From Christensenellales bacterium (lineage in GTDB: Bacteria; Bacillota; Clostridia; Christensenellales; DTU072): DNA of 64,000 bases. Within the stretch, counting starts at the first letter, position 1, and the number at the start of each line of letters is the position of its first letter. Below, one piece after another: positions 7,358 through 37,853 of this stretch. Under the pieces are notes generated by a model. That model saw nothing but the letters and a program-made list of their open reading frames with translations. It ran no database searches and was not told where the DNA came from. The position numbers and the translations under genes are program-made. The DNA is taken from positions 326 through 64,325 of the forward strand of contig JBMNTS010000005.1 of the NCBI GenBank assembly GCA_050945855.1, in the 5' to 3' direction.

Positions 7358-7374
7358 GGTAAAGGGCAGAATAA

Positions 7375-7971: not shown

Positions 7972-7988
7972 TTTGAGGTATTTTCCGG

Positions 7989-12683: not shown

Positions 12684-15226
12684 TGAATATTATTTTAAAG
12701 CACACCTTAATAAGCATGCGCAAAAACAGGGCGCAAATCGCTTTGATTATCGCAACGGTTACCGTGGTTGTGAGTATGCTTTTCGCAAGTTTTTCCATGT
12801 TTGACATATTCTTCAATATCAACGCGGCGGAGTTTACCCGCCTTGCTGCGGACGCGGATATGATAGTGGGCGCCCATTACGACGGCGAATTTTATTCCTC
12901 TAACGAACTAAATGATTTGCTATCTCCTTACGCGGACAAGATAGAATATAAAAAGCATTTTATTAAAATGAGAGGGGTATTGCGGACCGAAAAGGATAAT
13001 ATCGGAGTGCTGATTGAGGCTACCGACCTTGCGGAATACCTTAAAAATACCACTCTTTACGGAAAGTATCGGGAAGGGGGGCTTGCCTATCCCTCCATAG
13101 TTATTAATCAGCGGTTTGCGGGCGAAAACAACCTTGGTTTGGGCGACACCGTGGAGCTTTTTTTGGGCACAGCGGAAGGCTACAAAAAATTCAGCGTATA
13201 CGCCATAAGTCAGAACACCGGCATATTTGCCTCCGGCGCCGCCATTAACGTGCTGATAGACCTTAATGACGCGGAAGGGCAGGGGCTGATTAACGTCACG
13301 CTGCTGAAGTTTAAGGATAAGGCGGTTTATGTCCAAGTGGAAGAACTGCTTAACGAACGCATGCCGAACATAAGCGTGGGCGAAGCCCTGAACACCACGC
13401 GCAACAGACAAATCGCGCTTAACAACACCCTGCTTTTCGGGGTGGCTTTACTGTTTATAGCGGGTATGATGTCGCTTATTCTGGTCACCAGTTACATGAT
13501 AATTGTAAAATCCCGCCTTAACGAAATGATAATATTCAAGACCGCGGGCGCGACTCCGCTGCAGACTACGCTTATTATGCTGTCCGAAGCCCTGATGTAC
13601 GCGGTGGCCGGCTCCCTTTGCGGCCTTATCGTGGGCAGAGGGGGTATGGCGCTTGCGGAATCCGCGCTGCTCAAAAACTTTTCCGCCGCAATTACTTACG
13701 AGTGGTGGAAATGGCTGCTTGCTTTTGCGGGCGGCATAATCTGCGCTCTTGCTTCCGCCCTTGTGCCGATTATCAGGCTTTCCCGCAAATCCATACGCGA
13801 GGCGACCTCGGGCACGGTAAAGGAAGTCAGGAATATAAAGCCGGTATATTTGATAATTTTGCTTGCGGTAATGGGCATAGTAATCTACGCTATGCGCAGC
13901 CTGTCCACATTCTACGTGCTTGTCTTATGCGCGCCGCTTATTGCGCTTATCGCGCTGTTTATCTTTGCCGGCTCTCCAAACGTACATCTTTGGGTATCCA
14001 AAATAGCTGAAAAAATATTCCAAAAAGGCGTATTCAGACTTTCATCGGTAACGACAAGGCGAAACGGAGCGGTGCATAACGTGTCCGTTCTGCTCTCCAC
14101 GGTAATCGCTTTCAGCTTTATGGTGGTGGCGGTAATAGATTTTGTAAACGTGATGCTTACGCCAAGCAACGCAAGGTACGTATCCGATTTTGTAGTGGAG
14201 TACCAAAGCGGCGACAAGCTGCCCTCAAGAGCGGATTTGCTAAGGCTGGAGAGCGGGCTTGCGGGAGTGGAAGGGATAGAAGGGGCGTATCTTGTGGCTT
14301 CAAGCGGTATTGAGTTAAAGGACGAAAGCGGGAAATACGCGGACGACGACAGATGGTTGCAGCTTGTGGGGCTTTCCGATCTCTCCAGGCTGGATTATAT
14401 TTTTGCCGACCCCGGCAACATTGTATACAAGCTGCCCCCTTCCGGCGCGGAGCATCCCGCAATATGCAATATAGACCTTATCAAGCGGTTTGGTCTTAAA
14501 GCGGGGGACGAGCTGCGCTTCCTTATCCGCAACGAGGAGGGAGAAGTAATAAGGGAGTACGGGCAATCCGTCACCATAGTGGGCATTGATTACACCGCAA
14601 CCGAATATGACAAGTATGTTTATACCGATTTGGGCGCGCTGTACGACAATGAGGAAAGCCTTGCGATAGGCGTACGCTATTTTGTCAACGCCGGGCAAGG
14701 CGAGGAGGCCTTTTCGCGTTTGCGCGGCTTTCTGGAGCAGGACGGGGAGTTTGGGGGACGCGCTTTTGTTTTCGGTTATGAGCGGTGGCTGTACTCTTCC
14801 GCCCTGGGGCTGGGCAATGTGAAAGGGCTGCTTGCCATGCTGCAGATTGCCATTTGCCTGGTGGCGTTTTTAGGGATAGTCAACGTCAGTATAGTTACCG
14901 CTTACGACAGGGAGCAGGAATACAATATATATAAATTCAGCGGTATGAGCGAGAAAGGTTACCTATTGCACGCCCTGGGCGAAAGTGTTATAATAGGCAT
15001 GTCCGGCGCCGCTATAGGCGCGGTTATTTGCGTATGCGTGTATCAGATGATGCCCGCGCTTGCCATCGCCGCGGAAAAATATATGGTTTTTGCCGCGATA
15101 AACGTTAAACTTGCGGTTGTGCTTTCCGCCTGTTTTGTCCTCTTCGGGCTGTTGTGGTATTCCATTGCCTGCAGGGGCAGGCGGAGATTTAATCTTATGA
15201 GGAGCCAAAACGAAAGACTGATATAG
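12683..15226 (+). CDS. ABC transporter permease with two FtsX-type domains
   Basis: 847 aa. Two 4-TM FtsX-like blocks, each preceded by a large extracytoplasmic domain. The start overlaps the upstream stop (TAATG). Confidence 0.8.
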   Translation: MNIILKHTLISMRKNRAQIALIIATVTVVVSMLFASFSMFDIFFNINAAEFTRLAADADMIVGAHYDGEFYSSNELNDLLSPYADKIEYKKHFIKMRGVLRTEKDNIGVLIEATDLAEYLKNTTLYGKYREGGLAYPSIVINQRFAGENNLGLGDTVELFLGTAEGYKKFSVYAISQNTGIFASGAAINVLIDLNDAEGQGLINVTLLKFKDKAVYVQVEELLNERMPNISVGEALNTTRNRQIALNNTLLFGVALLFIAGMMSLILVTSYMIIVKSRLNEMIIFKTAGATPLQTTLIMLSEALMYAVAGSLCGLIVGRGGMALAESALLKNFSAAITYEWWKWLLAFAGGIICALASALVPIIRLSRKSIREATSGTVKEVRNIKPVYLIILLAVMGIVIYAMRSLSTFYVLVLCAPLIALIALFIFAGSPNVHLWVSKIAEKIFQKGVFRLSSVTTRRNGAVHNVSVLLSTVIAFSFMVVAVIDFVNVMLTPSNARYVSDFVVEYQSGDKLPSRADLLRLESGLAGVEGIEGAYLVASSGIELKDESGKYADDDRWLQLVGLSDLSRLDYIFADPGNIVYKLPPSGAEHPAICNIDLIKRFGLKAGDELRFLIRNEEGEVIREYGQSVTIVGIDYTATEYDKYVYTDLGALYDNEESLAIGVRYFVNAGQGEEAFSRLRGFLEQDGEFGGRAFVFGYERWLYSSALGLGNVKGLLAMLQIAICLVAFLGIVNVSIVTAYDREQEYNIYKFSGMSEKGYLLHALGESVIIGMSGAAIGAVICVCVYQMMPALAIAAEKYMVFAAINVKLAVVLSACFVLFGLLWYSIACRGRRRFNLMRSQNERLI

Positions 15227-15234
15227 GAGTCATT

Positions 15235-18204
15235 ATGAAATACAGGATAAACAAAGAGAACTACAAAACTTTTTCCGTTTTTGAAGAAAACAGAATGTCC
15301 CCGCGTACATATTTTATTCCCTTTTCTCAAAAAAGCGAACTTGCGATTACCTCTCCGCAAAGCGAGAGGTATTATTCGGACAAGGTTACCCTGCTTTCGG
15401 GGGAATGGGATTTTATCTATTACGATAAGGTAAGCGGGATTGCGGACGAATTTGACTCCGATGAGGTAGGCTGGCAGAGCGTAAGCGTGCCTTCGGTATG
15501 GCAAAGGACGGGTTTTGAGTCTCCCGTATATCTTAACCATTCTTATCCCTTCCCCTCCAAGCCTCCGCGCTTCCCATACGATTGCCCGGCAGGGATATAC
15601 AGAAAACGCTTTAGCGTGCAGGGCTATTCCCGCCATATCCTCACCTTTTTGGGCGCTGCGGGCGGACTGGAAGTTTACGTCAACGGGAAACGGGTAGGTT
15701 ACGGCGAAGGCAGCCACAATACGCAGGAATTTGACATAACCCCCTTTGTTCAAAGCGGGGAAAACGAGCTTGTGGCGGTGCTGTTCAAGTGGAGTAACGG
15801 CACTTATTTGGAATGTCAGGATATGTTCAGGGAAAACGGCATTTTCCGCGACGTATATATTACGTCTTTGGCGGAGTATGATTTTTGGGATATAAAGCTC
15901 ACTCCCAAAAAGAGCGGCTTCGGGTGGGAACTGCAAATAGCCGCCATGCTGAACAATAAGGACGACGATTTTCAGGCAACGGCCTATCTGTATGACAATG
16001 ACCGATTGGTGGCGCAAGCCGAATTAAGGGACAATTACGCCGAGCTAACCGACCTGGAAGTGCAGGAGTGGTCCGCGGAAATACCTTACCTTTACGAATT
16101 GTATCTGGAGATTGTGCACAACGGTGAAACGCTTAGCGTAGTTCGCAGCTTTGTAGGCTTCAAAGAGGTAAGCATAGACGGGGCAGTCTTTAAAATCAAC
16201 GGCAGGGCGGTAAAGCTGTTGGGCGTAAACCGTCACGACACGCATCCGCAAAAGGGATATGCGATTAGCGTGGAGGATATAGAGCGGGATATTTTGCTTC
16301 TTAAGCAATTCAACTGCAATGCCGTTCGCACTTCGCACTATCCCCCCGACCCCGTGTATCTGCAGCTTTGCGACATTTACGGGCTGTACGTGATAGACGA
16401 GGCGGATATAGAGTGTCACGGCGCCATTAGAAAGGGGCGCAGAGGCAGGATAAGCAACCGCCCGGAATGGGAAGGGCATTTTTTGGACAGAGTAAAGCGC
16501 ATGGTAATCCGCGATTACAACCGCGCTTGCGTCGTTATGTGGTCATTAGGTAACGAGTCGGGCGGCAGGCGCAATCAGGACACCTGCGCGCGCTGGATAA
16601 AAAAGGTCAGCCCTCTGCCCGTGCATTACGAAAACGTTTACGGCCCCGTAAGGTTTGGCTACGACGTCACAAGCAGAATGTACACTCATCCCGAAACCCT
16701 GGAGAAAATAGGGCAGGGCAAGGCGAACATTTTTTACGGTAAAGGCAAAAAGCCCTTTTTCCTTTGCGAATACGCTCACGCCATGGGAGTGGGTCCGGGC
16801 AGCTTAAAAGAGTATACGGACGCTTTCTTAAAGTATGACAACTTAATGGGCGGCTGCGTGTGGGAGATGATAGACCACGCGGTGGAGGGCTACAGCGATA
16901 AATACCGTTACACCTACGGAGGCGACCACGGCGAAGCGGCGCATGACGGCAATTTTTGCGTGGACGGCTTGTTTTTCCCGGACAGGACGCCGCATACGGG
17001 AGCGTACGCAATGCTGGAGGCTTACCGCCCTATAAGAGCGCAAATGCTTGCTCCCGACGTCTTTACTTTCAAAAACATACGCAGCTTCAAGAGCGCTGAG
17101 GATATCAGGATAAACTGGCTGCTGCTGAAAAACGGGGAAGAGGCGGACGGAAGTTCCTTTATAGCTGATATCGCCCCCGGCGACACCATAGTAAAAAATA
17201 TCACTTACAAGGATATGGATAAGGATGCGGAATACGTGCTGCGCTTCACTTATACGAATCTTGAAAAAACCTTGACGCTGGGCAACGACGAGTTTATTGT
17301 TCAGGCGGCTGACTTGCGACACATTCCCGGGGAAGGCGAGTGCAAAAGGAGTATTGAGGACGGCAAGTGCATTATAGAATGCGAAAATTCAAGCATAGTT
17401 TTTGACAAAAAGGAAGGCAGACTTGCCGGCATTAAGGTAGCGGGACAGGAAGTGCTGGCGAACGCTGTTGCCCCCAATATTGCGCGCGCGGATCTGGACA
17501 ACGATGGCAAAATCAAAAAACGCTGGAAAAAACAGGGGCTGTACGAAAGAAAGCTCAAGGTCAGAAAAGTGACCGAGACCCTTGAGGCCGGCCGCGCGGT
17601 CTATCAGGTAAGCGCCGCTTACGGCGGAAAGACTAAGTTCAGGCTAAACACCGTATACGAGCTTTTTGCGGACGGCAGCATCAAAATCACCAATTCCATA
17701 AAGAGTATGTTCAAAAAAATCAATCTGCCCCGCTTCGGCAATATGCTGAGACTGAACAGAAGCTATGAAAACATCGAGTATTACGGCAGAGGGGAAAAGG
17801 AAAACCTGCCCGACTTTAAGCTGCAGGCGCAACTGGGCAGATACTCTGCCAAAATCGCCGACTTTGCGCAAAACTACATAAAACCGCAGGAATCCGGCAT
17901 TCATACGGATATGCGCCTGGTAAGCCTTACCAACAAAAAGGGAGAGGGAATAGCCATAAAAGCGTGCTGCGCGCCCTTTATATTTAACGCAAGCCTATAT
18001 GACACCGACAGTATTATAAGCGCCGCCCACCCCGAGGACTTGCGCCCCGCTGACGCCGCTCTTATCTATATAGACGGCTTTATGCGCGGCACAGGCAGCA
18101 ACTCCTGCGGCCCAAAACCCATGGAAATGTATACGGTCAAAGCGGGCAGAGCGCCACTGACCTATTCTTATATTATCTGTCCTATAACAAAAAGCGATAA
18201 ATAA
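15235..18204 (+). CDS. lacZ: beta-galactosidase, glycoside hydrolase family 2 (LacZ architecture)
   Basis: 989 aa. NRHDTHP, acid/base WSLGNESG and nucleophile region FLCEYAHAMG. The C-terminal about 270 aa resembles the LacZ small-chain/domain 5. RBS AGGAG 8 nt after the permease stop. Confidence 0.88.
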   Translation: MKYRINKENYKTFSVFEENRMSPRTYFIPFSQKSELAITSPQSERYYSDKVTLLSGEWDFIYYDKVSGIADEFDSDEVGWQSVSVPSVWQRTGFESPVYLNHSYPFPSKPPRFPYDCPAGIYRKRFSVQGYSRHILTFLGAAGGLEVYVNGKRVGYGEGSHNTQEFDITPFVQSGENELVAVLFKWSNGTYLECQDMFRENGIFRDVYITSLAEYDFWDIKLTPKKSGFGWELQIAAMLNNKDDDFQATAYLYDNDRLVAQAELRDNYAELTDLEVQEWSAEIPYLYELYLEIVHNGETLSVVRSFVGFKEVSIDGAVFKINGRAVKLLGVNRHDTHPQKGYAISVEDIERDILLLKQFNCNAVRTSHYPPDPVYLQLCDIYGLYVIDEADIECHGAIRKGRRGRISNRPEWEGHFLDRVKRMVIRDYNRACVVMWSLGNESGGRRNQDTCARWIKKVSPLPVHYENVYGPVRFGYDVTSRMYTHPETLEKIGQGKANIFYGKGKKPFFLCEYAHAMGVGPGSLKEYTDAFLKYDNLMGGCVWEMIDHAVEGYSDKYRYTYGGDHGEAAHDGNFCVDGLFFPDRTPHTGAYAMLEAYRPIRAQMLAPDVFTFKNIRSFKSAEDIRINWLLLKNGEEADGSSFIADIAPGDTIVKNITYKDMDKDAEYVLRFTYTNLEKTLTLGNDEFIVQAADLRHIPGEGECKRSIEDGKCIIECENSSIVFDKKEGRLAGIKVAGQEVLANAVAPNIARADLDNDGKIKKRWKKQGLYERKLKVRKVTETLEAGRAVYQVSAAYGGKTKFRLNTVYELFADGSIKITNSIKSMFKKINLPRFGNMLRLNRSYENIEYYGRGEKENLPDFKLQAQLGRYSAKIADFAQNYIKPQESGIHTDMRLVSLTNKKGEGIAIKACCAPFIFNASLYDTDSIISAAHPEDLRPADAALIYIDGFMRGTGSNSCGPKPMEMYTVKAGRAPLTYSYIICPITKSDK

Positions 18205-18214
18205 TATATCACGG

Positions 18215-18381
18215 CAATTAATAAGAAAAAAGCCTTGAGAACACTATAAATCTACCTTAACACGCCGCAGGCGTATTGCATTTCGGCATAAGCCGAAATT
18301 GCATATTGCCGGTATAGGCAATATTTCATATTGGCGCAAGCCAATATTTAATTGCGCCGCAAGGCGCCTTGCGGACGCGCA
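18215..18381 (+). repeat. dispersed intergenic element: about 45-nt head plus array of 6 short hairpins with conserved ATTGCAT-type spacers
   Basis: Hairpins are ACGCC-gca-GGCGT, TTCGGC-ataa-GCCGAA, ATTGCC-ggtata-GGCAAT, ATTGGC-gcaa-GCCAAT, GCGCC-gcaa-GGCGC and TGCG-gacg-CGCA. Spacers are ATTGCAT, ATTGCAT, ATTTCAT and ATTTAAT. 18257-18304 matches the reverse complement of 51777-51824 at 46 of 48 positions (manual alignment). Confidence 0.75.
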
Positions 18382-18382
18382 T

Positions 18383-21300
18383 CTATACAAGCATTTTCCC
18401 TATGGATGCCAACTCTTCCTGAGCTTCTTTGGGCAGCAGTACGGGCTGAATGCCCAGTTTATGACATTCCAGAATTTTGTGGGCGGTGATTTCCAATACT
18501 TCGGTAGTATCCGCCGCTCTCCTTACGCTGTTTCCGCAGACTACCAGACCGTGATTTTGCATTAGTGCCGCCGCGCCTTCCGCGCCTAAGGCATCGGCCA
18601 CCATATCGCCCAATTCGGGGGAGCCGGGGATAACAAAGTCCACTACGGGGACTTCGCCGATAAAGGCGGCGTCCGTGGAGACCGGCTTAAAGCTGAGATT
18701 GGTAAGCGCCATAAGGGTGGCCGCGGGGGCGTGGGAGTGAATCACCGCCATAATCTCCGGCCGTTTTTTGTAAATGGCAAGATGCACCATTTTTTCGCTG
18801 CTGGCGGAAAGGCTACTCTCGCCTACCACGTTGCCGTCAAGGTCTATGCGCACCATCATATCCGCCTTAAGGTCACCCTTGAATATGGAACTGGGCGTAA
18901 TCCATACGTGGTTGGGGTTGTCCTCACAGCGCGCGCTTACGTTGCCGCCTATGCCGGTAATAAGCCCTTTGGCGTAAAGCTCGTTGGTGACCTGCAATAT
19001 CTCGTCGCGCACGTCGCCCACTTTGGCAGCTTCAGGTTGGGCGTAAATGATTTTCTGTTCAACTGTTTCCCGCTTTTCCTCGGTTTTTTTCCCGAACAGC
19101 CTTGCAAAGAAACCTTGTTTCTTAGCCTGCCTTTCAACAACGGGCCGCGCCTCTTCCTTTTTGACTGTGTCCGCTTGCGGAGCAATTATCGGAGCCTGTG
19201 AAAGCGCGGAAACATCAGTGATACCCGTGCTTGCCATAGCTTTTCCGTAAGAGGTCATCATCAGCTTAAGCAAGGACTGCATGCTCATTGCCTTGCGCAC
19301 ATTGCCGGTAAAGCTCATTTTTCCCGTCATGGCCGCTTTCGCTCCGTTAACGGTGCCTTTCATCATTCCGTCAAATATCTCAATCGGCATATTCAGGCAC
19401 ACGTCGGCGGCGCCTCCGGTAAACTCGCCCAAGCCGCAAATAACCTCGCCGCCCTTGAAGTACATATAACAGCTTTGCCCGTTGTCCTTAAAGGTGATTT
19501 GGAAACTTATATCCTTACTCGCCGTCTTTTGCCCTACTTCCTCATCGGCGGAAAGCTCCTTTAAAAATGCCTCGATAAGCTGCATATATCCGCCCGCACC
19601 CGCCGGCGTTGCCGCGGTATCGGGTGCCTTTTGGGGCGCCGTTTCCGGCTTTTGAGATACCTTTACTTCTTGTTTCGCCGAAGCGGCGTCCAAATCGCTT
19701 ACCCCGGTCTGCTTGGCTTTAAGGCCGGCAAGCGCCTGTATATCCACCTTCCTTTCGCCCGTAAAGGAAAAGTCTTTAAGCGCCTTGCGGTTGATTACGT
19801 CCGAACTTAACTCTCCTTTGAGCAGCCTCTCGATATTTTCCGCGATTATCAGCCCCTGATGTATGCTTACCTGTTTGGTATTGCCGCCTATATGCGGAGT
19901 GCATAAAACGTTTTCCATTTGCACCAGCGGGTCATTATACGCCGGAGGCTCCACGTCAAATACGTCCAGTGCCGCTCCCGCCAGTTTTCCGCTTTTGAGA
20001 GCGTCCAACAGCGCGGCGCTGTCTACCAGCGCGGCGCGCGCGGTGTTGACGAAATACGCTCCGTCCTTCATTTTCGCGAACGCCTCCGCGTTAATCATCC
20101 CTTTGGTCTGCCCGGTTACCGGAGCATGCAGGCTTATTATATCGCTTTCACTAAGCAACTCGTCCAGTTCTGCCTTACGCGCGCCCATCAGAGCCGCCGC
20201 GCCGAAAGTAAGGTAAGGGTCGTACACCAGCACCTGCGCGCCGAAAGCAAGCAGCCTTTTCGCCACCTTTTTGCCTATCGCCCCGCCGCCTATAAGACCT
20301 ACCTTTTTGCGCCATAGTTCCATGCCCTGATAACGGAAATACGCCGCTCCCATTCTGCCCATATCCCCGGCCTGACCCCCTTCCTCTTTAAGGAAAGCCG
20401 CCGCCTGGGGAATCATGCGCGCGAGGTTGAGCATAAAAGCCAGCGCCAAATCCGCCACCGCCTCCGAATTTCTGCCCGGTGTGTACACTACCGCTATGCC
20501 CGCCGCGCTGCACGCGTCCACGTCGATATTGGTGGGATTGCCTCTGCATACGCCTATCATTCTGAGGTTGGGCAGCGCCTTTACTATGTCCGCGTCCACA
20601 ATATCCACTTCGGTAATAAAAATATCGTAATTTTTGAGGGTGGATATCATTTCCTCCCCTTCCAGCATGTCTCCGTCCCGGTAATTTTTCGCGGTGACTT
20701 CCCCGTAAGCGCGCAAAAGGTCGATAGCCTCCGCGGATAAATCCGCGTCCGAATAAATGCGCAGCTTAGCCTTTTGGGTGCCGCTCTTTTTTTCGCCCTC
20801 CGCCGACTTTAACTCGCTTATCAGCGCGCCTAACGGCATATTTGTTTCAAAGGAAGAGGCGTACGCCTCCCGCCACTCTTCGTAAATGCGGCGGTAGGTC
20901 TCCTCCTTGCCCGCGAACTTATCCTTTACGCCGACCATTTCGGCCGCTGCTTCCTTTAGCCCTTTGTATATCCCCGCGCCCGCCGCCGCGCATATAGCCG
21001 CGCCCAGTACGGACGCCTCCGGAAGCGCGGTCCTTATTATCTCCTTTTCCGTAACCTGAGAGATAATATAAGGAAAGATATCGTCTTTGCTCGCGCCGCC
21101 GCCTATGGCGATTTTTTCAGGCTCCGCCCCCGCGACCTCGGCAAGCTGGTCTATATTTGCCTTGACCCCGAAGGCAAGCCCTTCCACAACCCCGCGGGAA
21201 ATATTAGACCGGTCAAATTCGTTAGGAATATGATTGGTGGTGGAAAAGTATATCTGGTCAATGGGCAGGGCAAGCACGGAAACGTTGAAAACCGAAGCCC

Positions 21301-22318
21301 CCACCGTAGAGAGAAGCCCGCCCGCGCCGCAGGGAGCGGCGGCGGCGTTTTCCATAAGCGCGCCCACAGGATTGGGCAAGCCCTGATAAAGCAGCCCCGC
21401 TATCCATTCAAGCGCCATGCCCGAGCCGCCCGCGTTACTCTCCAATACATAAACGCCGGGGACGGGTCCCACGCCTGACCATAGCCTTTGCTTAGGGTCG
21501 ATTATCGGTTTTTCGGTAATCAATTGTATGGGCATGGTAGTGCCCGCCACGATTCCGCATTCCCCCGGGTTGACGATATTCATACCCAACAGCGCGCTTT
21601 GCGTATCTCCCGCGCCGTAGACCGCCCGCGCGCCCTCCTTAATATTGAGTTCCTTGCATAAATCGGGGAAAACCGTCCCCGCCTCGCTTGCGCAATCCAC
21701 AAGCGGTGGCAAAAACGCCTTGTTAAGCTCCAGTTTTTCGATAAGCTCATCCGACCAGGCCGAATTTTTAAGGTCGAACAATAAGGTTTCCCCCGCCTGT
21801 GTTCTTTCCACTCCGATTTTTCCGCAAAGACGGTAGATTATGTAATCGGAAAGGGTGAATACGGTGGCGATTTTGTCATACAAATCCCTTTGCGTATCCT
21901 TTAGCCACAGCAGCTTGCACGCCGTAAGGTTGGGCATGGGCTTATGCCCGCAGATGCTATAGATAAGGTCGGCGCAAGTGTCGTTTAAGCGCATTGTCGC
22001 ATCTACCGCGCGCGCGTCCCTGTTGGGGGAAGCAAACAGCGCCTCCCCGTCCTTATCCAGCGCAACCAGGGTATGCCTCATGGAAGATACGCCTATTGCG
22101 GCAATCTCGCTTACCCCCGCGCGCCTGACGCACTCCGCTATGCTTTCCCTGACCGCCTGCCAAATCAGGCCGGTATCCATACCGAAGCCGTAATCGCCTA
22201 TGGCGGATATGCCCCCTTTTACGTCGCGCCTGACCAGAGTAACCAACTCCTTACCGCAAAAAAGGGCGCACCTTATGGAGCCGCCCCCGATATCAATGCC
22301 TATTACGTTTTTTTTCAT
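18383..22318 (-). CDS. four-domain fusion protein: FGGY carbohydrate kinase / D-2-hydroxyacid dehydrogenase / SCP2 / class II aldolase-adducin
   Basis: A single 1311-aa ORF with RBS AGAGGT. aa 1-495 FGGY (IGIDIGGGSIR, GAGDTQSALLG, IAIGGGASKD). aa 517-845 2-HADH (GLIGGGAIGKKVAKRLLAFGAQVLVYDP, NTARAALVD, DVFDVEPP, TPHIGGNT). aa 908-1025 SCP2-like. aa 1098-1311 class II aldolase (GGNVSAR, HSHAP, QNHGLVV). Confidence 0.85.
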   Translation of the reverse strand: MKKNVIGIDIGGGSIRCALFCGKELVTLVRRDVKGGISAIGDYGFGMDTGLIWQAVRESIAECVRRAGVSEIAAIGVSSMRHTLVALDKDGEALFASPNRDARAVDATMRLNDTCADLIYSICGHKPMPNLTACKLLWLKDTQRDLYDKIATVFTLSDYIIYRLCGKIGVERTQAGETLLFDLKNSAWSDELIEKLELNKAFLPPLVDCASEAGTVFPDLCKELNIKEGARAVYGAGDTQSALLGMNIVNPGECGIVAGTTMPIQLITEKPIIDPKQRLWSGVGPVPGVYVLESNAGGSGMALEWIAGLLYQGLPNPVGALMENAAAAPCGAGGLLSTVGASVFNVSVLALPIDQIYFSTTNHIPNEFDRSNISRGVVEGLAFGVKANIDQLAEVAGAEPEKIAIGGGASKDDIFPYIISQVTEKEIIRTALPEASVLGAAICAAAGAGIYKGLKEAAAEMVGVKDKFAGKEETYRRIYEEWREAYASSFETNMPLGALISELKSAEGEKKSGTQKAKLRIYSDADLSAEAIDLLRAYGEVTAKNYRDGDMLEGEEMISTLKNYDIFITEVDIVDADIVKALPNLRMIGVCRGNPTNIDVDACSAAGIAVVYTPGRNSEAVADLALAFMLNLARMIPQAAAFLKEEGGQAGDMGRMGAAYFRYQGMELWRKKVGLIGGGAIGKKVAKRLLAFGAQVLVYDPYLTFGAAALMGARKAELDELLSESDIISLHAPVTGQTKGMINAEAFAKMKDGAYFVNTARAALVDSAALLDALKSGKLAGAALDVFDVEPPAYNDPLVQMENVLCTPHIGGNTKQVSIHQGLIIAENIERLLKGELSSDVINRKALKDFSFTGERKVDIQALAGLKAKQTGVSDLDAASAKQEVKVSQKPETAPQKAPDTAATPAGAGGYMQLIEAFLKELSADEEVGQKTASKDISFQITFKDNGQSCYMYFKGGEVICGLGEFTGGAADVCLNMPIEIFDGMMKGTVNGAKAAMTGKMSFTGNVRKAMSMQSLLKLMMTSYGKAMASTGITDVSALSQAPIIAPQADTVKKEEARPVVERQAKKQGFFARLFGKKTEEKRETVEQKIIYAQPEAAKVGDVRDEILQVTNELYAKGLITGIGGNVSARCEDNPNHVWITPSSIFKGDLKADMMVRIDLDGNVVGESSLSASSEKMVHLAIYKKRPEIMAVIHSHAPAATLMALTNLSFKPVSTDAAFIGEVPVVDFVIPGSPELGDMVADALGAEGAAALMQNHGLVVCGNSVRRAADTTEVLEITAHKILECHKLGIQPVLLPKEAQEELASIGKMLV

Positions 22319-22512
22319 GCTTTCTACCTCTAAAAATTATATGTACAGAATATAGAAAATAATATAATTGACCGAGCACAAATCTATAAATCGACAATAA
22401 TCATTGTAAATCAATAACATAATAAAGTCAATACGGACAAAATGCAAAGCCTTCACCAATTGCTTTAAACAAAATTACATACAAAATTTTAAACATTACG
22501 TTTTAAACCTAT

Positions 22513-22540
22513 TGAATTATTTTGATAGAAATGATATAAT
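22513..22540 (+). promoter_or_regulatory. promoter of the SDR/TetR/SDR operon
   Basis: TTGAAT - 16 nt - TATAAT, 27 nt upstream of the ATG. RBS AAGGAGAGG. Confidence 0.5.
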
Positions 22541-22567
22541 TGTGCAAACAACTTTAAGGAGAGGTGT

Positions 22568-24181
22568 ATGCAACCGATAAAAGTATTTATTACCGGGGCT
22601 TCGGGCTCCATGGGCAGCGAAGTGTTAAAAGCTGTTATGAACAATGAAAAGTTCAACGGCATCGTGCTGCTCAGAAAAAAGAAGGCTAACGAAAAGCTGT
22701 GCGCGAAACTCAAAGCCAGATATCAAGACAGAATAGAAGTGGTTTTCGGCGATTTGTCCAATTTCAAAGATTGCGTGGACACGGTGGCAAAGGCGGATTA
22801 CATTATTCATTGCGCCGCCATTATCCCGCCCGCTTCCGACCACAACCCCGAGCTTGCGGAAAAAGCGAATTACATCGGCACAAAAAATCTGGTGGCGGCA
22901 ATAGAGCAGGATAAAAACAAGGATAAAAAGAAGTTCGTTAATATCGGTTCCATCGCCGAATACGGCAACCGCCATTTCCCCGCGCATTGGGGCAGGGTGG
23001 GCGACCCGCTGGTATCCTCCGTTTACGATTACTACGCCGTGACCAAAATAAGAGGGGAGCGCTCCGTGGTGGAATCGGATATAAAGTACTGGGTGTCCCT
23101 AAGACAGAGCGGTATTCTTTACGATAACGTGCTGTTTAACAATATGAACGACGGCCTGATGTTCCACACCAACTGGAACACCTTTATAGAGTGGGCTACC
23201 GCGCGCGACAGCGGGCGTATGATACACAACCTCATAGAGCTTGACTCTACAGGCAAGCTGCCGGAAAAATTCTGGCAAAGAGTGTATAACATCGGCAACG
23301 GCGACGGCGCGCGCGTTACCGGCTATCAGACGCTGGACAGGGGCTTTAAACTTATGGGCAGCAGCGCCGAGAAAATCTTTTCTCCGCATTGGCTTGCTAC
23401 CCGCAATTTCCACTGCTTCTGGTATCTGGACTCCGACGAACTCAACAATTACCTCAATTTCAGGACGGAAAGCTTTGAGGACTTTTTCTCTAAGCTCGGC
23501 AAAAAGCTGTGGTATTTTAAGCTGGGTAAGCCCTTCCCCGGTCTTATCAGAAAATTTGCCATAGAAAGGCTGTTTAACGATACCAACGCGCCCATGTACT
23601 GGGTGAACAACAATATCACGGGCAGAGTAAACGCCTTTTTCGGCTCACGCGAGAAATTTGACAGCATACCCCGCAACTGGGACAATTTCAAGCCCATTCC
23701 CGGTGAGGAATTAAAGGATTTGTCCACGGCGGAAATACTTGACCTCAGAGGAAAAACCGAACTCAGCAAAGAGGATATCGCCTTTATTTCGGACAACGAG
23801 TATAAGGGCAAAAACCGCGCTGTTATTCTCTCCCACGGTTACGACGAATCCAAACCGGACAGCGAACTGACCATAGAGGATATGCGCGGCGCCGCCCAAT
23901 TCAGAGGGGGCAAGTGCTTGTCGCCGTCCATGAAGAAGGGCGATTTGCGCACAAAACTGAAGTGGGCGTGTCATGACGGGCATGAGTTTGAGGCGTCCCC
24001 TTATACGGTAATCAAAGCGGGATTCTGGTGCCCGGTGTGCTGCCAGCCCGTACCCTGGAATTTTGACGCGCTGTCAAAGAAGATACCTTTCTTCGCGCAG
24101 GCCTGGTATAATTCGCACAGTCCGGAAGAAAACGAGTTTTATCCGGCGGACTGCTATAAGGATATATTGAAAAATGAGTAA
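22568..24181 (+). CDS. NAD-dependent epimerase/dehydratase-like SDR with C-terminal zinc-ribbon domain
   Basis: VFITGASGSMGSEV Rossmann motif and YAVTK (YxxxK). The C-terminal LKWACHDGHEFEASPYTVIKAGFWCPVCC resembles the W.C..GHeW......CP.C zinc-ribbon (DUF4379-like) motif. Confidence 0.7.
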   Translation: MQPIKVFITGASGSMGSEVLKAVMNNEKFNGIVLLRKKKANEKLCAKLKARYQDRIEVVFGDLSNFKDCVDTVAKADYIIHCAAIIPPASDHNPELAEKANYIGTKNLVAAIEQDKNKDKKKFVNIGSIAEYGNRHFPAHWGRVGDPLVSSVYDYYAVTKIRGERSVVESDIKYWVSLRQSGILYDNVLFNNMNDGLMFHTNWNTFIEWATARDSGRMIHNLIELDSTGKLPEKFWQRVYNIGNGDGARVTGYQTLDRGFKLMGSSAEKIFSPHWLATRNFHCFWYLDSDELNNYLNFRTESFEDFFSKLGKKLWYFKLGKPFPGLIRKFAIERLFNDTNAPMYWVNNNITGRVNAFFGSREKFDSIPRNWDNFKPIPGEELKDLSTAEILDLRGKTELSKEDIAFISDNEYKGKNRAVILSHGYDESKPDSELTIEDMRGAAQFRGGKCLSPSMKKGDLRTKLKWACHDGHEFEASPYTVIKAGFWCPVCCQPVPWNFDALSKKIPFFAQAWYNSHSPEENEFYPADCYKDILKNE

Positions 24182-24752
24182 AAGATACGGCGGAAAAAGA
24201 GAGCAGATACTGGATGCCGCACTGCGCCTTGTCGCCCGCTACAACGATTTTAACATCACGGTGCGGCAGATAGCCGCGGAGGCCAAAGTCAACGTGGCGG
24301 CCATCAATTACTATTTCAAGAGCAAGAAAGAAATGATGGCGCAAATGGAAAAGTTGTTTATGGACAATCTCCATGACGCCTTTACTCCCGTTTGCGAAAA
24401 GACGCTTTCCCCCGATGAGAGGCTAAAGGAATGGGTGAAGAAGTCATTGGGCTACGCGCGGCGTTATCCCGGCATTTTGGTATTCCTTAAAGATAAGTTC
24501 AGCAACCCGAAAGACAATGAATTTGAAAACGCCATGCGGCGCGCATTAAGCGAAAAGTTCACGCTTCTGAGGGAGCTTATCTTAGACAGCGTGCGCCCCG
24601 AAAGGCAGGAGGAGGAGTTGCTTATTATGACGCTGGGAGCGGTGATGCTCCTCCCCCTTATCGCGGATATGCCGGGCATGGGACTGCCCAAAGACCTGGA
24701 CGAGCATATACAATACGTGATTACGATAATAGAAAAATTTAAAAGCAGATAA
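24174..24752 (+). CDS. TetR/AcrR family transcriptional regulator
   Basis: N-terminal HTH (ILDAALRLVARYNDFNITVRQIAAEAKVNVAAINYYFKSKKEM). 8-nt overlap with the upstream gene. Confidence 0.85.
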   Translation: MSKRYGGKREQILDAALRLVARYNDFNITVRQIAAEAKVNVAAINYYFKSKKEMMAQMEKLFMDNLHDAFTPVCEKTLSPDERLKEWVKKSLGYARRYPGILVFLKDKFSNPKDNEFENAMRRALSEKFTLLRELILDSVRPERQEEELLIMTLGAVMLLPLIADMPGMGLPKDLDEHIQYVITIIEKFKSR

Positions 24753-24773
24753 AATATTAAGGAGAAAAAACGA

Positions 24774-25868
24774 ATGGAAGTAAAAAAAGTGTTTATAGTC
24801 GGCGGAACGGGATTCTTAGGCTATTACTCCGCTCTGGAATTTCTGAAAAAGGGCATAGCGGTAAGCTCCGCTTCTATTCCCGACGTAAAATTGGGGGATT
24901 GGTTTCCCAAGCAGATTGACATTGTAAGCGACAACTTAAACGTGTTTTCCGCAAGCGCGGAAGAGCTTACGGAGGTTTTCGCGGGGCATGACGCCATTGT
25001 TTACGCGGTAGGCCCGGATGACAGGTACACGCCGCCCGCTCCCGCTTTCGAGTTCTTTTTTGACAAGCTGGTTACACAGTGCGTAAAGGTGGTAAAGGCG
25101 GCAAGAGCGGCGGGAGTAAAGAGGGCGGTTATATTAAACTCTTATTTTGCATATTTTGACAGGCAGCCGCAATATAACGGACAGCTTTCCAACAATCACG
25201 CTTATATCAAGTCAAGGGTAAGACAGGCGGAGGAGACCATTAAGGCGGGCAAGGAAGGCGTTATGGACGTTATGATTCTGGAATTGCCTTATATATTCGG
25301 CAGTATGCCGGGCAGAATGCCTTTATGGAAAGAGGTGTTTTTAGACAGATTCGACACAATGCCCGCCGTATTCTTCCCCAAGGGGGGTACGGTTATGGTG
25401 CACGTGAGAGGAGTGGCTCACGCCGTGGTGGGCGCGACATTAAACGGCAAACACGGCGAAAGGTATCCTATCGGACTGTACAATATGAAGTATAAGGACA
25501 TGATAAGGATAATGTACGATGCCATAGACAATAAGAAAAAAATCATCAATTCTCCCACCTGGATTGCGTATCTGGCAGGCTTGTTCTTAAAGATGAAGGA
25601 CAAGAGGGAAGGAAAGGAAGGCGGGCTTGATTACGCCAAACTTATGACGGATATTCAATCGCGCGATTTGTTCTATTCGCAGGAAGTCATTGACAAGACC
25701 AAAGAGGATTTAGGCTATGACGAGCTGGGCTTTGAGGACTTCGACGTAAAGGAAGGCATTCAAAGCACCATGCAGGCTTGCTATCCGGAAAAATTCCCCT
25801 CTTCCGACCCCGCCAATCAGGTAAAAGAGGATCTGGAGATAATTAATAAAGTTTGGAAAAACAAATAG
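24774..25868 (+). CDS. NAD(P)-binding (epimerase/NmrA-like) oxidoreductase
   Basis: VFIVGGTGFLGYYSALEFLKKG Rossmann motif. RBS AAGGAG. Confidence 0.7.
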   Translation: MEVKKVFIVGGTGFLGYYSALEFLKKGIAVSSASIPDVKLGDWFPKQIDIVSDNLNVFSASAEELTEVFAGHDAIVYAVGPDDRYTPPAPAFEFFFDKLVTQCVKVVKAARAAGVKRAVILNSYFAYFDRQPQYNGQLSNNHAYIKSRVRQAEETIKAGKEGVMDVMILELPYIFGSMPGRMPLWKEVFLDRFDTMPAVFFPKGGTVMVHVRGVAHAVVGATLNGKHGERYPIGLYNMKYKDMIRIMYDAIDNKKKIINSPTWIAYLAGLFLKMKDKREGKEGGLDYAKLMTDIQSRDLFYSQEVIDKTKEDLGYDELGFEDFDVKEGIQSTMQACYPEKFPSSDPANQVKEDLEIINKVWKNK

Positions 25869-26010: not shown

Positions 26011-27402
26011 TTGATGGAAAAGAGATATTTAACCAAAAGGGAAAAATGGTCTTTCAGCCTTGCCGGATTGGGTCAGAATATGGCTTACGGCATAATGAGC
26101 AGCTTCCTGCTTACCTTTTATACGGACATTATGTTTTCGGACGCGCTCTGGGTGATTACCGTGATTATGATTATCGCGCGGGTGTGGGACGCGGTGAACG
26201 ACCTTATTATGGGCTCTATCGTAGACCGTACGCGCACCCGGCTGGGTAAGTGCAGACCGTATCTTCTGGCCGCGCCCCTGCCCATAGCGGTATTTACCGT
26301 ATTGATATTTATTAAGCCGGAACTGCCGCTGGCGGCCAGGGTGGCATACGCTATGTTTACTTATATTATGTGGGGTATGCTCTATACGATAGCTGACGTG
26401 CCTTTCTGGGCGCTTCCCTCCACCATGACTCCCAACGCCGCGGAAAGGGCGGACTTTTTAAGCTTTGCCCGCATAGTCAACGGCATTGGGGCGGCGCTGC
26501 CCATATTGGTTATGGAATTGTTCAAAGGGGACAGCGGCTACACCAAGCAAAGCTACCTGTATTCTGCGATAATTATGGCAGCGGCGGGCTGCAGCCTGTA
26601 TCTGCTCGCCTTTTTCAATTGCAGGGAAAGGATAAGACCGCCGGAGAAAAAGGAAACGCTTATTGACAATATCAAACTTATCCGGCTTAACAAGCCGCTT
26701 AAACTGGTGATTTGCTTAGGCGTGCTTTGCTTCGGGCGGTATATCGTAAATATGTTTTTGATTTACGCCTCCAGGGATATCTTTATCGGCGCGCCGCAGG
26801 GCTTTTCCATGATATTGCTAAGCCTTGTAATCGGCCTGGGCACCTTCCCCGGCATGGCGGTTATGCCCGCTTTGTTTAAGAAATTCAATTATAAGCAGAT
26901 AGCGATAGGCGCGGGTACCGCTTCTTTTGTTTTTCAGCTGGCGCTGTTTATAGCGGGCGTGGCGTCGGGATATAATTATTATGTCGCGCTGCCCTTCTTG
27001 TTTTTCTGCGGCATACCTTTCGGCGTTTACAATACCCTTACTTTCGCGATAATCGGGGACAGCGTGGATTACATGGAATGGAAAACGGGAAAGAGGATAG
27101 AGGGTATAGGCTTTGCCTGTCAGACCTTTATCAACAAAATGGGCGCGGCTATCTCTACCGGCTTGATACCGCTGTTGCTTATTCTGGTGGGATACCTTGC
27201 TCCCGAAAAGCGGGATGCGGACTACGCCATACCCCGTCTGGGACTGCTTATTGTCTTTTCTTTAGTGCCCGCGGTAAGCATGCTTTTGTCCACAATACCC
27301 ATGTATTTTTACGACTATGTGGGCAAGACCAAGGAAAGGGCGTTGGAAGAGCTGGCGGCGACGCGCAGACGTGAAGGCAGAATAATAGAAGGAGAGATTT
27401 AG
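26011..27402 (+). CDS. GPH (glycoside-pentoside-hexuronide):cation symporter family MFS transporter
   Basis: 12-TM profile. N-terminal FSLAGLGQNM...FYTD and the RVWDAVNDLIMGSIVDRTRTRLGKCRPY motif typical of MelB/YicJ-type transporters. The start may be TTG 26011 or ATG 26014. Confidence 0.85.
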   Translation: MMEKRYLTKREKWSFSLAGLGQNMAYGIMSSFLLTFYTDIMFSDALWVITVIMIIARVWDAVNDLIMGSIVDRTRTRLGKCRPYLLAAPLPIAVFTVLIFIKPELPLAARVAYAMFTYIMWGMLYTIADVPFWALPSTMTPNAAERADFLSFARIVNGIGAALPILVMELFKGDSGYTKQSYLYSAIIMAAAGCSLYLLAFFNCRERIRPPEKKETLIDNIKLIRLNKPLKLVICLGVLCFGRYIVNMFLIYASRDIFIGAPQGFSMILLSLVIGLGTFPGMAVMPALFKKFNYKQIAIGAGTASFVFQLALFIAGVASGYNYYVALPFLFFCGIPFGVYNTLTFAIIGDSVDYMEWKTGKRIEGIGFACQTFINKMGAAISTGLIPLLLILVGYLAPEKRDADYAIPRLGLLIVFSLVPAVSMLLSTIPMYFYDYVGKTKERALEELAATRRREGRIIEGEI

Positions 27403-27407
27403 TGCAA

Positions 27408-28424: not shown

Positions 28425-28428
28425 AAAG

Positions 28429-29190: not shown

Positions 29191-29208
29191 TCTTTTTAGG
29201 AGGACAAA

Positions 29209-31101: not shown

Positions 31102-31103
31102 GT

Positions 31104-37678: not shown

Positions 37679-37826
37679 AGCGACCCTCCCGAATACCAAT
37701 CAACAGCTTGGTCAGGCTTTACTTTCTTATTCTATCATATTTCCGGTATTTCAAAGCCGTTTGACTGATTTTTTATCTCTTGCGGCGATTAGACCGTGAA
37801 TCTGACAGACAAATGGCGCATTGGCG

Positions 37827-37853
37827 CAAAAAAAGCCGCGTCGGAGCGGCTTT
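37827..37853 (-). terminator. rho-independent terminator
   Basis: Minus strand reads AAAGCCGC-tccgac-GCGGCTTTTTTTGC, directly after the 37887 gene. Confidence 0.7.

Follow-up and report, generated by a model that had tools for sequence, protein, structure and literature searches.

A conserved four-module fusion of kinase, dehydrogenase, SCP2 and aldolase in a Christensenellales bacterium, and a tentative proposal for its function

What might a bacterium do with a sugar kinase, a dehydrogenase, a lipid-binding domain and an aldolase joined in a single polypeptide? The question is raised by one gene in a stretch of 64,000 nucleotides from a Christensenellales bacterium (contig JBMNTS010000005.1 of assembly GCA_050945855.1; hereafter the window). 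From its N to its C terminus, the product of this gene consists of an FGGY kinase module, a D-2-hydroxyacid dehydrogenase module, an SCP2 module and a class II aldolase module (Table 1). A preliminary description of the window had proposed that this is a genuine fusion within one open reading frame (ORF), that the catalytic motifs of the kinase, dehydrogenase and aldolase are intact, and that the arrangement has not been characterized. All three proposals have held up. The modules are supported by Pfam and recur in the same arrangement in homologs, the motifs are present and invariant, and we found no paper on the four-module architecture, nor on SCP2 fused to sugar-type kinase and aldolase modules. 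The names that homologs carry in public databases (AI-2 kinase, L-ribulose-5-phosphate 4-epimerase, NAD(P)-dependent oxidoreductase) are generic or are single-domain, best-hit transfers; curated cut-offs do not support them, and they are probably misleading. Judged by sequence, the architecture is that of a conserved, uncharacterized enzyme built from well-known families.

The modules were classified using Pfam gathering cut-offs, NCBIfam equivalog cut-offs, a sequence search of the PDB and Foldseek, and residue invariance was scored across 20 diverse homologs of 38-63% identity. All modules (FGGY_N/C, 2-Hacid_dh, SCP2 and Aldolase_II) exceed the Pfam gathering cut-offs, and no module of the fusion reaches an NCBIfam equivalog cut-off. 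The kinase has the hallmarks of FGGY carbohydrate kinases, namely two actin-like ATPase domains, the phosphate-1 motif DxGxxxxR, the catalytic Asp of GxGD and the GG adenosine motif, and its residues D9, G11, R81, R103, D238 (in GDTQ) and G407-G408 are invariant. Its best NCBIfam match is LsrK, the kinase of autoinducer-2 (AI-2), although the score of 210.6 bits falls far below the cut-off of 528 for that equivalog (NF008187); XylB (186 bits, cut-off 380) and GlpK (122 bits) score lower. LsrK is also the best PDB match (5ya0, 157 bits), and the module is nearer to LsrK than to FucK.

The dehydrogenase combines the NAD-binding and catalytic domains of the D-isomer-specific 2-hydroxyacid dehydrogenases (the NAD domain, aa 626-811, scores 195.6 bits and the other Pfam score is 64.6 bits) with the GxGxxG motif and its acidic residue and the Arg-Glu-His triad. 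These residues (G677-x-G679-xx-G682, D700 and R761/E790/H809) are invariant and align with those of 3-phosphoglycerate dehydrogenase (PGDH). Against the NCBIfam model of PGDH (TIGR01327) the module scores 260.8 bits, short of the equivalog cut-off of 454; the best PDB match is the PGDH of M. tuberculosis (187 bits), and further scores are 202 bits for glyoxylate reductase and 160 bits for GhrB. Two additional arginines, R592 (CRGN) and R616 (PGRN), are family-invariant extras in the substrate loops, and are consistent with an anionic, possibly phosphorylated, substrate.

The C-terminal part of the protein is covered by an AlphaFold model (aa 886-1311), in which the SCP2 and aldolase domains are both confidently predicted (pLDDT >90). 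By sequence and fold the SCP2 module resembles the sterol-transfer family of that name, whose C-terminal motif is of the G-K-L-x-F-x-G type. Its residues G999, F1003 and G1005 are invariant, and it shows a weak sequence match in the PDB to the fatty-acid-binding SCP2 protein 4jgx, along with faint Alkyl_sulf_C similarity over the same stretch. The aldolase contains the three His metal ligands, the SSE glutamate and the phosphate pocket (GGNxS and TPS(T)G) of the FucA/DrdA-type aldolases that release dihydroxyacetone phosphate (DHAP), and GGNxS 1124-1128, T1141-P1142, S1173-S1174-E1175, H1194-S-H1196 and N1255-H1256-G1257 are all invariant. Its top Foldseek match is DrdA, the 5-deoxyribulose-1-phosphate aldolase of B. 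thuringiensis (6btg/6btd, TM 0.91, rmsd 1.4-1.5 A), followed by FucA (TM 0.88-0.91 for DrdA and FucA together), with AraD (TM 0.81-0.82) and YgbL/OtnC poorer. DrdA and FucA are likewise its nearest solved sequences (79 bits; 30% identity to DrdA), and the FucA models of NCBIfam give about 93 bits against cut-offs of 250-264.

Two other functions found within the class II aldolase fold fit the module less well. AraD has SSD and KPS where FucA has SSE and a TPS-type loop. The window protein has SSE and ITPSS, unlike an L-ribulose-5-phosphate 4-epimerase (AraD/SgbE/UlaF), and scores 112.3 against a cut-off of 251 for NF005123. Similarly, it reaches 107.3 bits against a cut-off of 250 for the 3-oxo-tetronate 4-phosphate decarboxylases OtnC/YgbL, and YgbL (6vop) shows a gap and an Ala at the invariant SSE of the window protein, with no Glu at the aligned position. 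By these residues the module is FucA/DrdA-like, and neither epimerase-like nor decarboxylase-like.

Could the fusion simply be a product of faulty assembly or annotation, through a chimeric contig or a sequencing error that causes read-through? The preliminary description had argued that it is not, and the spread of the family makes such an artefact an exceedingly remote prospect. The window does derive from a metagenome assembly, but nothing specific speaks for an error. In a search of 5.8 billion proteins, about 65 cluster representatives, 36-62% identical, proved to have the four modules in this order, and four-module loci, nearly all of full length, occur in at least 80 GTDB species genomes (one genome per species), so that the arrangement is not rare; taken together, the identities span 35-62%. 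The carriers include Christensenellales and other Bacillota, Anaerolineae, Thermoflexales, Myxococcota, Halioglobus and Haliea, Spirochaetales, Binatia and Thermoleophilia, and dozens of independent assemblies are joined by the isolates Bellilinea caldifistulae (Anaerolineae), Halioglobus japonicus and Mycobacterium persicum. A 156-kb JGI metagenome contig encodes a protein (P0001) identical to that of the window, and a 1296-residue homolog (P0014) is 62% identical to the window protein over 100% of the latter. Homologs of the same length align end to end, which argues against a frameshift, and residues are conserved in every module. (An attempt to count the family through its SCP2 module in an exhaustive library was dropped, as the module is too divergent; it gave 150 matches, about 25 of them of at least 1000 aa.)

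What reaction could such an enzyme carry out? Our answer draws entirely on sequence, structure prediction and gene context. We propose tentatively, giving the idea appreciably less than an even chance, that the fusion is a self-contained three-step catabolic enzyme acting on an amphiphilic substrate, which SCP2 would hold while the polyol end is cleaved to give DHAP and an aldehyde. In the first step, the LsrK-like FGGY kinase would phosphorylate a terminal primary hydroxyl. In the second, the PGDH-like NAD dehydrogenase would oxidize the secondary hydroxyl beside the CH2-O-phosphate to a ketone, creating a ketose-1-phosphate-type end in a reaction that parallels the action of PGDH on 3-phosphoglycerate. 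In the third, the Zn-dependent FucA/DrdA-type aldolase would cut the C3-C4 bond to give DHAP and the aldehyde, which neighboring enzymes would then oxidize or reduce. The SCP2 module would meanwhile bind the hydrophobic tail, whether that of the substrate or that of the product, and the MinD-like motif described below would keep the enzyme at the membrane. The reactions would thus follow one another in the N-to-C order of the domains.

The pieces of this proposal rest on different observations. That family enzymes make a ketose-1-phosphate-type intermediate and cleave it to DHAP and an aldehyde is something we infer from the intact modules, the FucA/DrdA features, the recurring pairing of kinase with aldolase, and the aldehyde-oxidizing enzymes often encoded right beside the fusion. 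Likewise inferred are the sequence of steps, a phosphorylated substrate for the dehydrogenase, what SCP2 does, the attachment to the membrane and the kind of substrate. Oxidation next to the phosphorylated carbon is favored by four points: PGDH is the closest relative, the extra arginines are present, kinase and dehydrogenase occur together as an independent unit, and the domain order would equal the reaction order. The independent unit consists of about 23 kinase-dehydrogenase proteins of about 890 aa, recovered in the same protein search; their existence fits two steps that are adjacent in a pathway. They stand alone in the three contexts examined, once beside pyruvate kinase. Precedent for a kinase that acts before a dehydrogenase comes from erythritol catabolism, in which the FGGY kinase EryA is followed by EryB, which oxidizes the hydroxyl beside the phosphorylated carbon, the same order as that proposed for the fusion. 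EryB differs in being a GlpD-type flavoenzyme, and the erythritol route has neither an aldolase step nor a fusion.

The agreement between domain order and reaction order would also suit an anabolic enzyme, in which the kinase and dehydrogenase convert glycerol, or another small polyol like it, to DHAP, and the aldolase joins DHAP to a hydrophobic aldehyde that SCP2 presents, yielding a phosphorylated keto-polyol lipid or the precursor of a signaling molecule. The kinase-dehydrogenase proteins could then form a complete route from glycerol to DHAP, the SCP2 module directly precedes the aldolase, and DHAP-dependent aldolases are known to be reversible. Considering, however, that the kinase is nearer to LsrK and XylB than to GlpK, that oxidation of glycerol 3-phosphate is not known from the D-2-hydroxyacid dehydrogenase family, and that the neighbors are catabolic (transporters, glycosidases, aldehyde dehydrogenases, beta-oxidation genes and acyl-CoA ligases) with no features of a biosynthetic cluster seen, we regard synthesis as highly improbable.

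Why should a protein with sugar-type catalytic modules carry SCP2? The domain is present in every four-module homolog listed, always directly before the aldolase, and relatives of about 1480 aa carry two SCP2 modules. The clade of the aldolase also contains SCP2-aldolase proteins of about 372 aa, and stand-alone aldolases of 212-219 aa that are 56-66% identical to the aldolase module of the window. An SCP2-SCP2-aldolase protein in locus L103 (around 6900-8627) has no kinase or dehydrogenase gene nearby, and three proteins of about 300 aa (P0145, P0146 and P0152) have a GntR/DeoR helix-turn-helix domain fused to the aldolase and may be ligand-sensing regulators. The universal presence of SCP2, a second SCP2 on a glucuronidase encoded in the same operon as the fusion in some relatives, an amphipathic motif that two clades have placed independently, and operons with P450, CoA ligase and acyl-CoA dehydrogenase (ACAD) genes together argue for a substrate or product with a hydrophobic part. 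The preliminary description had envisaged that the protein channels a ketose, a deoxy-sugar or an acid sugar. For a soluble substrate of this kind channeling is possible, but the evidence is mixed, since the SCP2 module and the P450/acyl-CoA ligase/ACAD operons point away from a fully soluble substrate.

The amphipathic motif, KKQGFFARLFGKK, lies in the second of two linkers. The preliminary description had likened the linkers to those of multienzyme complexes, and flexible linkers are supported by the model, where aa 886-904 of linker 1 and about aa 1045-1095 of linker 2 have pLDDT<50, as expected of disorder. Linker 1 is of low complexity and aligns poorly among homologs, and linker 2 is not conserved outside the clade. 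The membrane-targeting sequence of E. coli MinD is KGFLKRLFGG (PMC5471200). The corresponding residues are QGFFARLFGK in the window protein and QGFLGRLFGK in the related protein P0006. Of 63 family proteins, 11 match a strict pattern, G-[FLIM]2-x-[KR]-[LIM]-[FLIM]-G; every one of these belongs to the Clostridia clade and has the match at one and the same position in linker 2, against a background of a single occurrence in 436,963 residues of neighboring proteins. A looser version, GGLLGGLKRLLGKE, is found in linker 1 of Bellilinea-type Anaerolineae, and most of the proteobacterial, myxococcal and actinobacterial members are without an amphipathic motif, so that the MinD-like motif characterizes certain clades and not the family as a whole. 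The MinD sequence is C-terminal in MinD, whereas that of the fusion is internal, but both are short, basic and amphipathic.

The position assigned to this segment in the preliminary description proved exact, and its suggestion of a targeting helix is made plausible by the match to MinD. That description had also left room for targeting to a compartment, which is unlikely: tblastn searches of the window and 94 related loci with approximate PduA, EutM and EutN-like query sequences found no shell genes of bacterial microcompartments. We therefore set aside an encapsulation peptide, and a membrane anchor is the better reading of the motif; going by the sequence match, the fusions of the window clade are probably tethered to the membrane by this segment.

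The gene neighborhoods of relatives were compared by clustering about 1,100 neighboring ORFs from 87 loci. No partner gene is conserved throughout the family, and the themes follow clades instead. The lipid-type theme is found in the proteobacterial and myxococcal groups. In Myxococcota and Binatia an acyl-CoA ligase, a TetR regulator, a P450 and the fusion are followed by a Rieske oxygenase or a second CoA ligase, with overlapping stops and starts and with ACAD pairs alongside. In Halioglobus and Haliea, a KshA-type Rieske gene is divergent from the fusion, which is followed by a VOC/glyoxalase-like gene and a CasG-like CoA ligase, whose best match is steroid-24-oyl-CoA synthetase (623 bits against a cut-off of 750). 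The same islands also encode ACADs, an amidohydrolase_2, PQQ alcohol dehydrogenases, a TonB receptor and an SCPx-type thiolase with DUF35, and they include a carotenoid-oxygenase-like gene. M. persicum has, after the fusion, first an Aldedh-like gene and next an HpnA-like short-chain dehydrogenase/reductase (SDR), with a WS/DGAT gene nearby. An analogy with 25-hydroxysteroid kinase and phosphosteroid lyase was considered and dropped; the paper concerned describes no enzyme of FGGY or aldolase type, and no lyase is identified.

In the Chloroflexi, one arrangement runs GntR, aldehyde:ferredoxin oxidoreductase (AFOR), class III aminotransferase (best match PigE), M28 peptidase, HpnA-type SDR and fusion. 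In the family at large, AFOR genes occur in L006, L011, L019 and L036. A second arrangement places BKACE, an SDR, an HpnA-type SDR, KdgK and Eda before the fusion. In L015 and L047 the fusion is overlapped at its start by an aldehyde dehydrogenase gene, and in L017 such a gene is the immediate upstream neighbor. The HpnA-type SDR of L006 scores 419.6 bits, above the TIGR03466 cut-off of 367.65, but the link with HpnA is strong solely in the Anaerolineae. Scores of 126 bits in M. persicum and 53.6 bits in the window make it weak there, and it was given up as a family-wide feature.

Two of these Chloroflexi loci encode a beta-glucuronidase (GUS) with its own C-terminal SCP2 domain (L015:15876-18026 and L047:14876-17026), whose gene shares an operon with the fusion, UxaC and UxaE. 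In L015 this gene lies downstream of the fusion and is followed by UxaC and then UxaE. Along its entire length the protein matches GUS structures, that of E. coli among them, with 442-467 bits. We know of no described glucuronidase with a lipid-carrier domain, and the arrangement suggests that its substrates are lipophilic glucuronides. A special kinship between this SCP2 and that of the fusion was rejected, since the two are only distantly related.

The glucuronidase leads to the main alternative, a soluble uronate route. Here the FGGY module would phosphorylate a product of UxaC, either D-fructuronate or D-tagaturonate, or else a small keto-sugar acid akin to these keto-uronates; the aldolase would release DHAP (or dihydroxyacetone) and tartronate semialdehyde, and the dehydrogenase would reduce the latter to D-glycerate. 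Such a route could take the place of the Ashwell pathway, would have analogs in FucK/FucA/FucO and IolC/IolJ/IolA, and would be redox-neutral overall, as the Ashwell route is. The contexts of the Clostridia speak for it. What recurs in them is an MFS_2 transporter, the fusion and an adh_short SDR, in that order, with MarR in some cases ahead of the transporter and GH2 in some cases ahead of the fusion, as in L091 (MarR, MFS_2, GUS, fusion, SDR), where the GH2 is a gut-type beta-glucuronidase with 747 bits to 6mvg. Among relatives on long contigs the closest is L008 (62% identity). There UxaC and the start of the fusion overlap by 4 bp, the operon goes on to KduI, a KduD-like SDR, GH88 and MFS_2, and the divergent genes are KdgK, 2-keto-3-deoxy-6-phosphogluconate (KDPG) aldolase and AraC. 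A PL22 oligogalacturonate lyase is encoded in L094. Outside this clade, the UxaC and UxaE genes of L015 fit the same picture, KdgK and Eda adjoin the fusion in L070 and L073, and the likeness of the dehydrogenase to glyoxylate reductase, GhrB and hydroxypyruvate reductases would suit its reductive role.

On the other hand, it is difficult to see how a soluble uronate would account for the universal SCP2, the membrane motif or the P450/CoA ligase/ACAD operons. UxaC is present in 2 of about 90 loci, and the window itself has no uronate genes beside the fusion. Known aldolases of the FucA/RhaD fold use 3R ketose-1-phosphates, whereas D-fructuronate and D-tagaturonate are 3S. A dehydrogenase that acts after the aldolase also fits poorly with the stand-alone kinase-dehydrogenase proteins, and we found no keto-uronate kinase/aldolase pathway in the literature. 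We consider the uronate route possible but doubtful. Moreover, the amphiphile proposal can absorb the glucuronide contexts, if the SCP2-bearing glucuronidase frees a lipid polyol for the fusion and UxaC and UxaE take the uronate.

If the substrate is indeed an amphiphile, which one might it be? Extended hopanoids and sphingoid polyols are candidates, whose ribose-derived polyol side chain would be cleaved to DHAP and a lipid aldehyde. Bacteriohopanetetrol-type hopanoids are in effect 5-hopanyl-5-deoxy-D-ribitol, and phytosphingosine-type bases would qualify after transamination at C2. With a hopanoid, the terminal CH2OH would be phosphorylated and the next carbon oxidized, and DrdA-like cleavage of the D-erythro ketose-1-phosphate would turn bacteriohopanetetrol into DHAP and a C32 aldehyde, the precursor of the C32 hopanoic acid prominent in sediments. 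Such substrates would account for SCP2, for the membrane motif and for DrdA as the closest structure. They would also account for the HpnA-type SDR of L006, the PigE/HpnO-like class III aminotransferase of the same operon and the aldehyde-oxidizing neighbors, as well as the proteobacterial CasG-like ligase, ACAD pairs and SCPx-type thiolase, and the SCP2-bearing glucuronidase if it acts on lipid glucuronides. The HpnA-type SDR, however, sits with KdgK and Eda in L070 and L073 and may act on sugar acids rather than hopanoids; the literature gives HpnA itself no established function, and we found no paper on hopanoid catabolic genes. These particular substrates we rate as distinctly unlikely.

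A different small-molecule substrate is suggested by the nearest characterized relatives of the kinase and aldolase, which are LsrK and DrdA. The fusion could serve in the salvage or detoxification of a 5-deoxy- or diketo-pentose, such as 4,5-dihydroxy-2,3-pentanedione (DPD; the AI-2 precursor and LsrK substrate) or by-products of the 5-deoxyribose type. After phosphorylation, reduction with NADH and isomerization would give a 5-deoxy-pentulose-1-phosphate, and DrdA-like cleavage would yield DHAP and acetaldehyde, replacing LsrG/LsrF or DrdK/DrdI. The kinase has SMR-, N-DARA and GGGD-Q motifs in common with LsrK, a SorC/DeoR/LsrR-type regulator lies directly upstream in three Bellilinea-type loci, and the gene is often alone amid housekeeping-like surroundings. 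Stand-alone relatives of the aldolase bear on the matter as well. Some of them, of 212 aa, belong to a recurrent cluster with an MFS_1 transporter and a kinase of the APH family, to which MtnK and DrdK belong. These clusters, in which the pairing of kinase and aldolase recurs with a non-homologous kinase, resemble the MtnK/DrdK-type DHAP shunt, with no recognizable isomerase gene. Against pentose salvage are the LsrK score, far under its cut-off, and the annotated contexts, in which no lsr genes (the transporter included), luxS, mtnA/drdI or nucleosidase genes were seen. Reduction of a diketone by a 2-hydroxyacid dehydrogenase would be without precedent, and SCP2, the membrane motif and the lipid-type operons would again be unexplained. 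We think this reading unlikely.

Several points weigh against our own proposal of an amphiphilic substrate cleaved at its polyol end. The kinase, dehydrogenase and aldolase families normally act on small soluble metabolites, and characterized D-2-hydroxyacid dehydrogenases use 2-hydroxy or 2-keto acids, formate or phosphite, not polyol phosphates. The Arg in the 'VRS' of PGDH, the residue that binds the substrate phosphate, belongs to a 'VRSAT' segment that aligns with 'ITEVD' in the window dehydrogenase; with 'TEV' at this position, any phosphate site here would have to differ. The SCP2 module could be structural, and the MinD-like motif is modeled as disordered. Among the gene contexts, there is no universal neighbor, the commonest neighbor family being present in 13 of 83 loci, and the neighbors in the window clade are of the sugar type (MFS_2, GUS, UxaC, KduI, GH88 and PL22), with no lipid-catabolic genes among them. 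Finally, in the three contexts examined no separate SCP2-aldolase gene accompanies the kinase-dehydrogenase proteins.

How does the fusion compare with systems that are already understood? The FucK/FucA/FucO-AldA system for L-fucose and D-arabinose likewise pairs an FGGY kinase with a Zn aldolase that shares the fold and the motifs GGNxS, SSE, HxH and H, and follows a similar logic, from ketose to ketose-1-phosphate to DHAP and an aldehyde, with subsequent redox chemistry on the aldehyde; its enzymes, however, are separate proteins without SCP2, and its redox enzyme is of another family. The DHAP shunt of DrdK/MtnK, DrdI/MtnA and DrdA/Ald2 includes the best sequence and structure match of the aldolase and gives DHAP and an aldehyde, but the kinase of the fusion is FGGY and not APH, an isomerase is lacking, and a dehydrogenase and SCP2 are added to an aldolase only distantly similar to DrdA. 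AI-2 processing by LsrK, LsrG and LsrF resembles the fusion in the best match of its kinase, in the LsrR/DeoR-like regulator of three loci and in DHAP as an end product; no LsrG, LsrF or Lsr transporter lies by the fusion, and the chemistry after phosphorylation would differ. Fusion of a class II aldolase to a dehydrogenase of the same pathway is known from the RhaEW-type bifunctional rhamnulose-1-phosphate aldolase/lactaldehyde dehydrogenase, in which the dehydrogenase is an SDR and neither a kinase nor SCP2 is fused. Lastly, SCP2 is appended to catalytic domains in peroxisomal MFE-2, SCPx thiolase and alkyl sulfatase (as its C-terminal domain), with the presumed task of presenting hydrophobic substrates. 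In those cases the substrates are acyl-CoAs or alkyl sulfates, unlike those of the sugar-type modules of the fusion.

If the proposed mechanism is correct, one polypeptide runs phosphorylation, oxidation and aldol cleavage together with a lipid-binding domain and, in the window clade, a MinD-like anchor, which would be an unusual recruitment of sugar-type central-metabolism enzymes to act at the membrane on an amphiphile. Carriers of the gene are spread widely, from gut and digester Clostridia to Anaerolineae, Myxococcota, marine Halioglobus and a Mycobacterium. Knowing the substrate could reveal a new glucuronide/uronate branch or a degradation route for polyol lipids such as extended hopanoids, and the fusion offers a natural template for engineered substrate-channeling fusions. 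The cultured carriers (B. caldifistulae, H. japonicus and M. persicum) make the question testable.

Within the window, the DNA around the gene largely bears out the preliminary description, which had portrayed a monocistronic gene with a single ribosome-binding site, an AT-rich divergent promoter region and a downstream hairpin array. A GAGG Shine-Dalgarno sequence (22330-22327) lies 8 nt ahead of the ATG, and a promoter-like site, TTGACT-17-TACAAT, matches the consensus on the minus strand at 22431-22403. The genes on either side, one divergent and upstream, the other convergent and downstream, are both on the plus strand, so that by geometry the fusion gene forms a single-gene unit. The gap of 178 nt between it and the convergent gene (18205-18382) contains five consecutive GC-stem hairpins (-69 kcal/mol, z = -4.2), two of which match a simple terminator pattern; they could be stacked bidirectional terminators or an element resembling repetitive extragenic palindromes (REP). 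The G+C content of the fusion-gene region (18001-22000) is 0.52-0.56, compared with mostly 0.47-0.53 in the 2-kb bins of the window, and may reflect amino-acid composition or horizontal acquisition.

Table 1. Coordinates of the fusion gene, its parts and associated features (window positions unless a locus is named)
Feature	Position	Strand	Details
Four-module fusion coding sequence, complete	18383..22318	-	1311 aa; ATG start; stop codon 18383-18385; from the ORF list
FGGY kinase module, LsrK-like	20978..22306	-	FGGY_N aa 5-245, 125.8 bits; FGGY_C aa 256-447, 56 bits
D-2-hydroxyacid dehydrogenase module, PGDH/glyoxylate-reductase-like	19790..20743	-	Pfam aa 526-843
Linker 1, about aa 850-925, low complexity	19544..19771	-	poor conservation in homolog alignment
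SCP2 module (sterol-carrier-protein-2 fold), aa ~906-1031	19226..19603	-	Pfam aa 934-1018, 41.7 bits against a cut-off of 21.3
Linker 2, aa 1032-1097, disordered	19028..19225	-	aa ~1045-1095 pLDDT<50; unconserved outside the clade
MinD-like amphipathic motif KKQGFFARLFGKK, aa 1066-1078	19085..19123	-	similarity to the MinD membrane-targeting sequence
Class II (FucA/DrdA-type) aldolase module, aa 1103-1311	18386..19012	-	Aldolase_II aa 1106-1280, 158.2 bits
Divergent intergenic region, AT-rich, 249 bp	22319..22567	.	promoter-like sites on both strands, consensus matches alone; GAGG ribosome-binding site (22327-22330)
Divergent unit	22568..25868	+	537-aa extended-SDR-like protein, TetR regulator, 364-aa extended-SDR-like protein (Pfam)
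APH kinase/MFS_1/aldolase clusters	L098:6581-8639; L099:722-3757; L101:3250-6416

None of the window neighbors, whether the SDRs, TetR, MFS_2 or the inositol-type genes, is securely linked to the fusion. The convergent gene (15235-18204) encodes a LacZ-type GH2 beta-galactosidase and was rejected as a glucuronidase or pathway partner, being of that type and on the opposite strand. The divergent unit of two SDR-like proteins and TetR may be co-regulated with the fusion gene, an association that we regard as tentative. Its 364-aa protein has HpnA as its sole NCBIfam match, far under the cut-off, and a hidden Markov model built from the HpnA-type SDRs that adjoin the fusion elsewhere gives 50 and 44 bits for the two SDR-like proteins of the window. 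The 537-aa protein (22568-24181), which has no NCBIfam match, combines an N-terminal extended-SDR (Epimerase) domain with a C-terminal extension of about 250 aa that includes a Cys-rich segment (…WACHDGHEF…FWCPVCC…).

Beyond this unit lies an inositol-type cluster (26011-33019), in which an MFS_2 transporter is followed by PfkB/IolC-like, KduI/IolB, thiamine pyrophosphate enzyme/IolD, AP_endonuc_2/IolE and GFO_IDH_MocA/IolG genes; among the ORFs that come after it there is neither an IolJ-type aldolase nor an IolA-type aldehyde dehydrogenase. A link between this cluster and the fusion could not be established, as another operon lies between them and the expected IolJ substrate is 3S. Farther along (36644-41002), ParB (39382-40287) and RsmG/GidB (40313-41002) genes adjoin two ORFs of 351 and 491 aa without Pfam match, an arrangement which suggests that the window is near a chromosomal replication origin. 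On the other side of the fusion, at 10582-15226, a 471-aa ORF without Pfam match precedes an ABC ATPase and an 847-aa FtsX-type permease that form a MacB-like exporter unit. A MacB-type set also occurs beside the fusion in the Anaerolineae locus L006, probably by coincidence.

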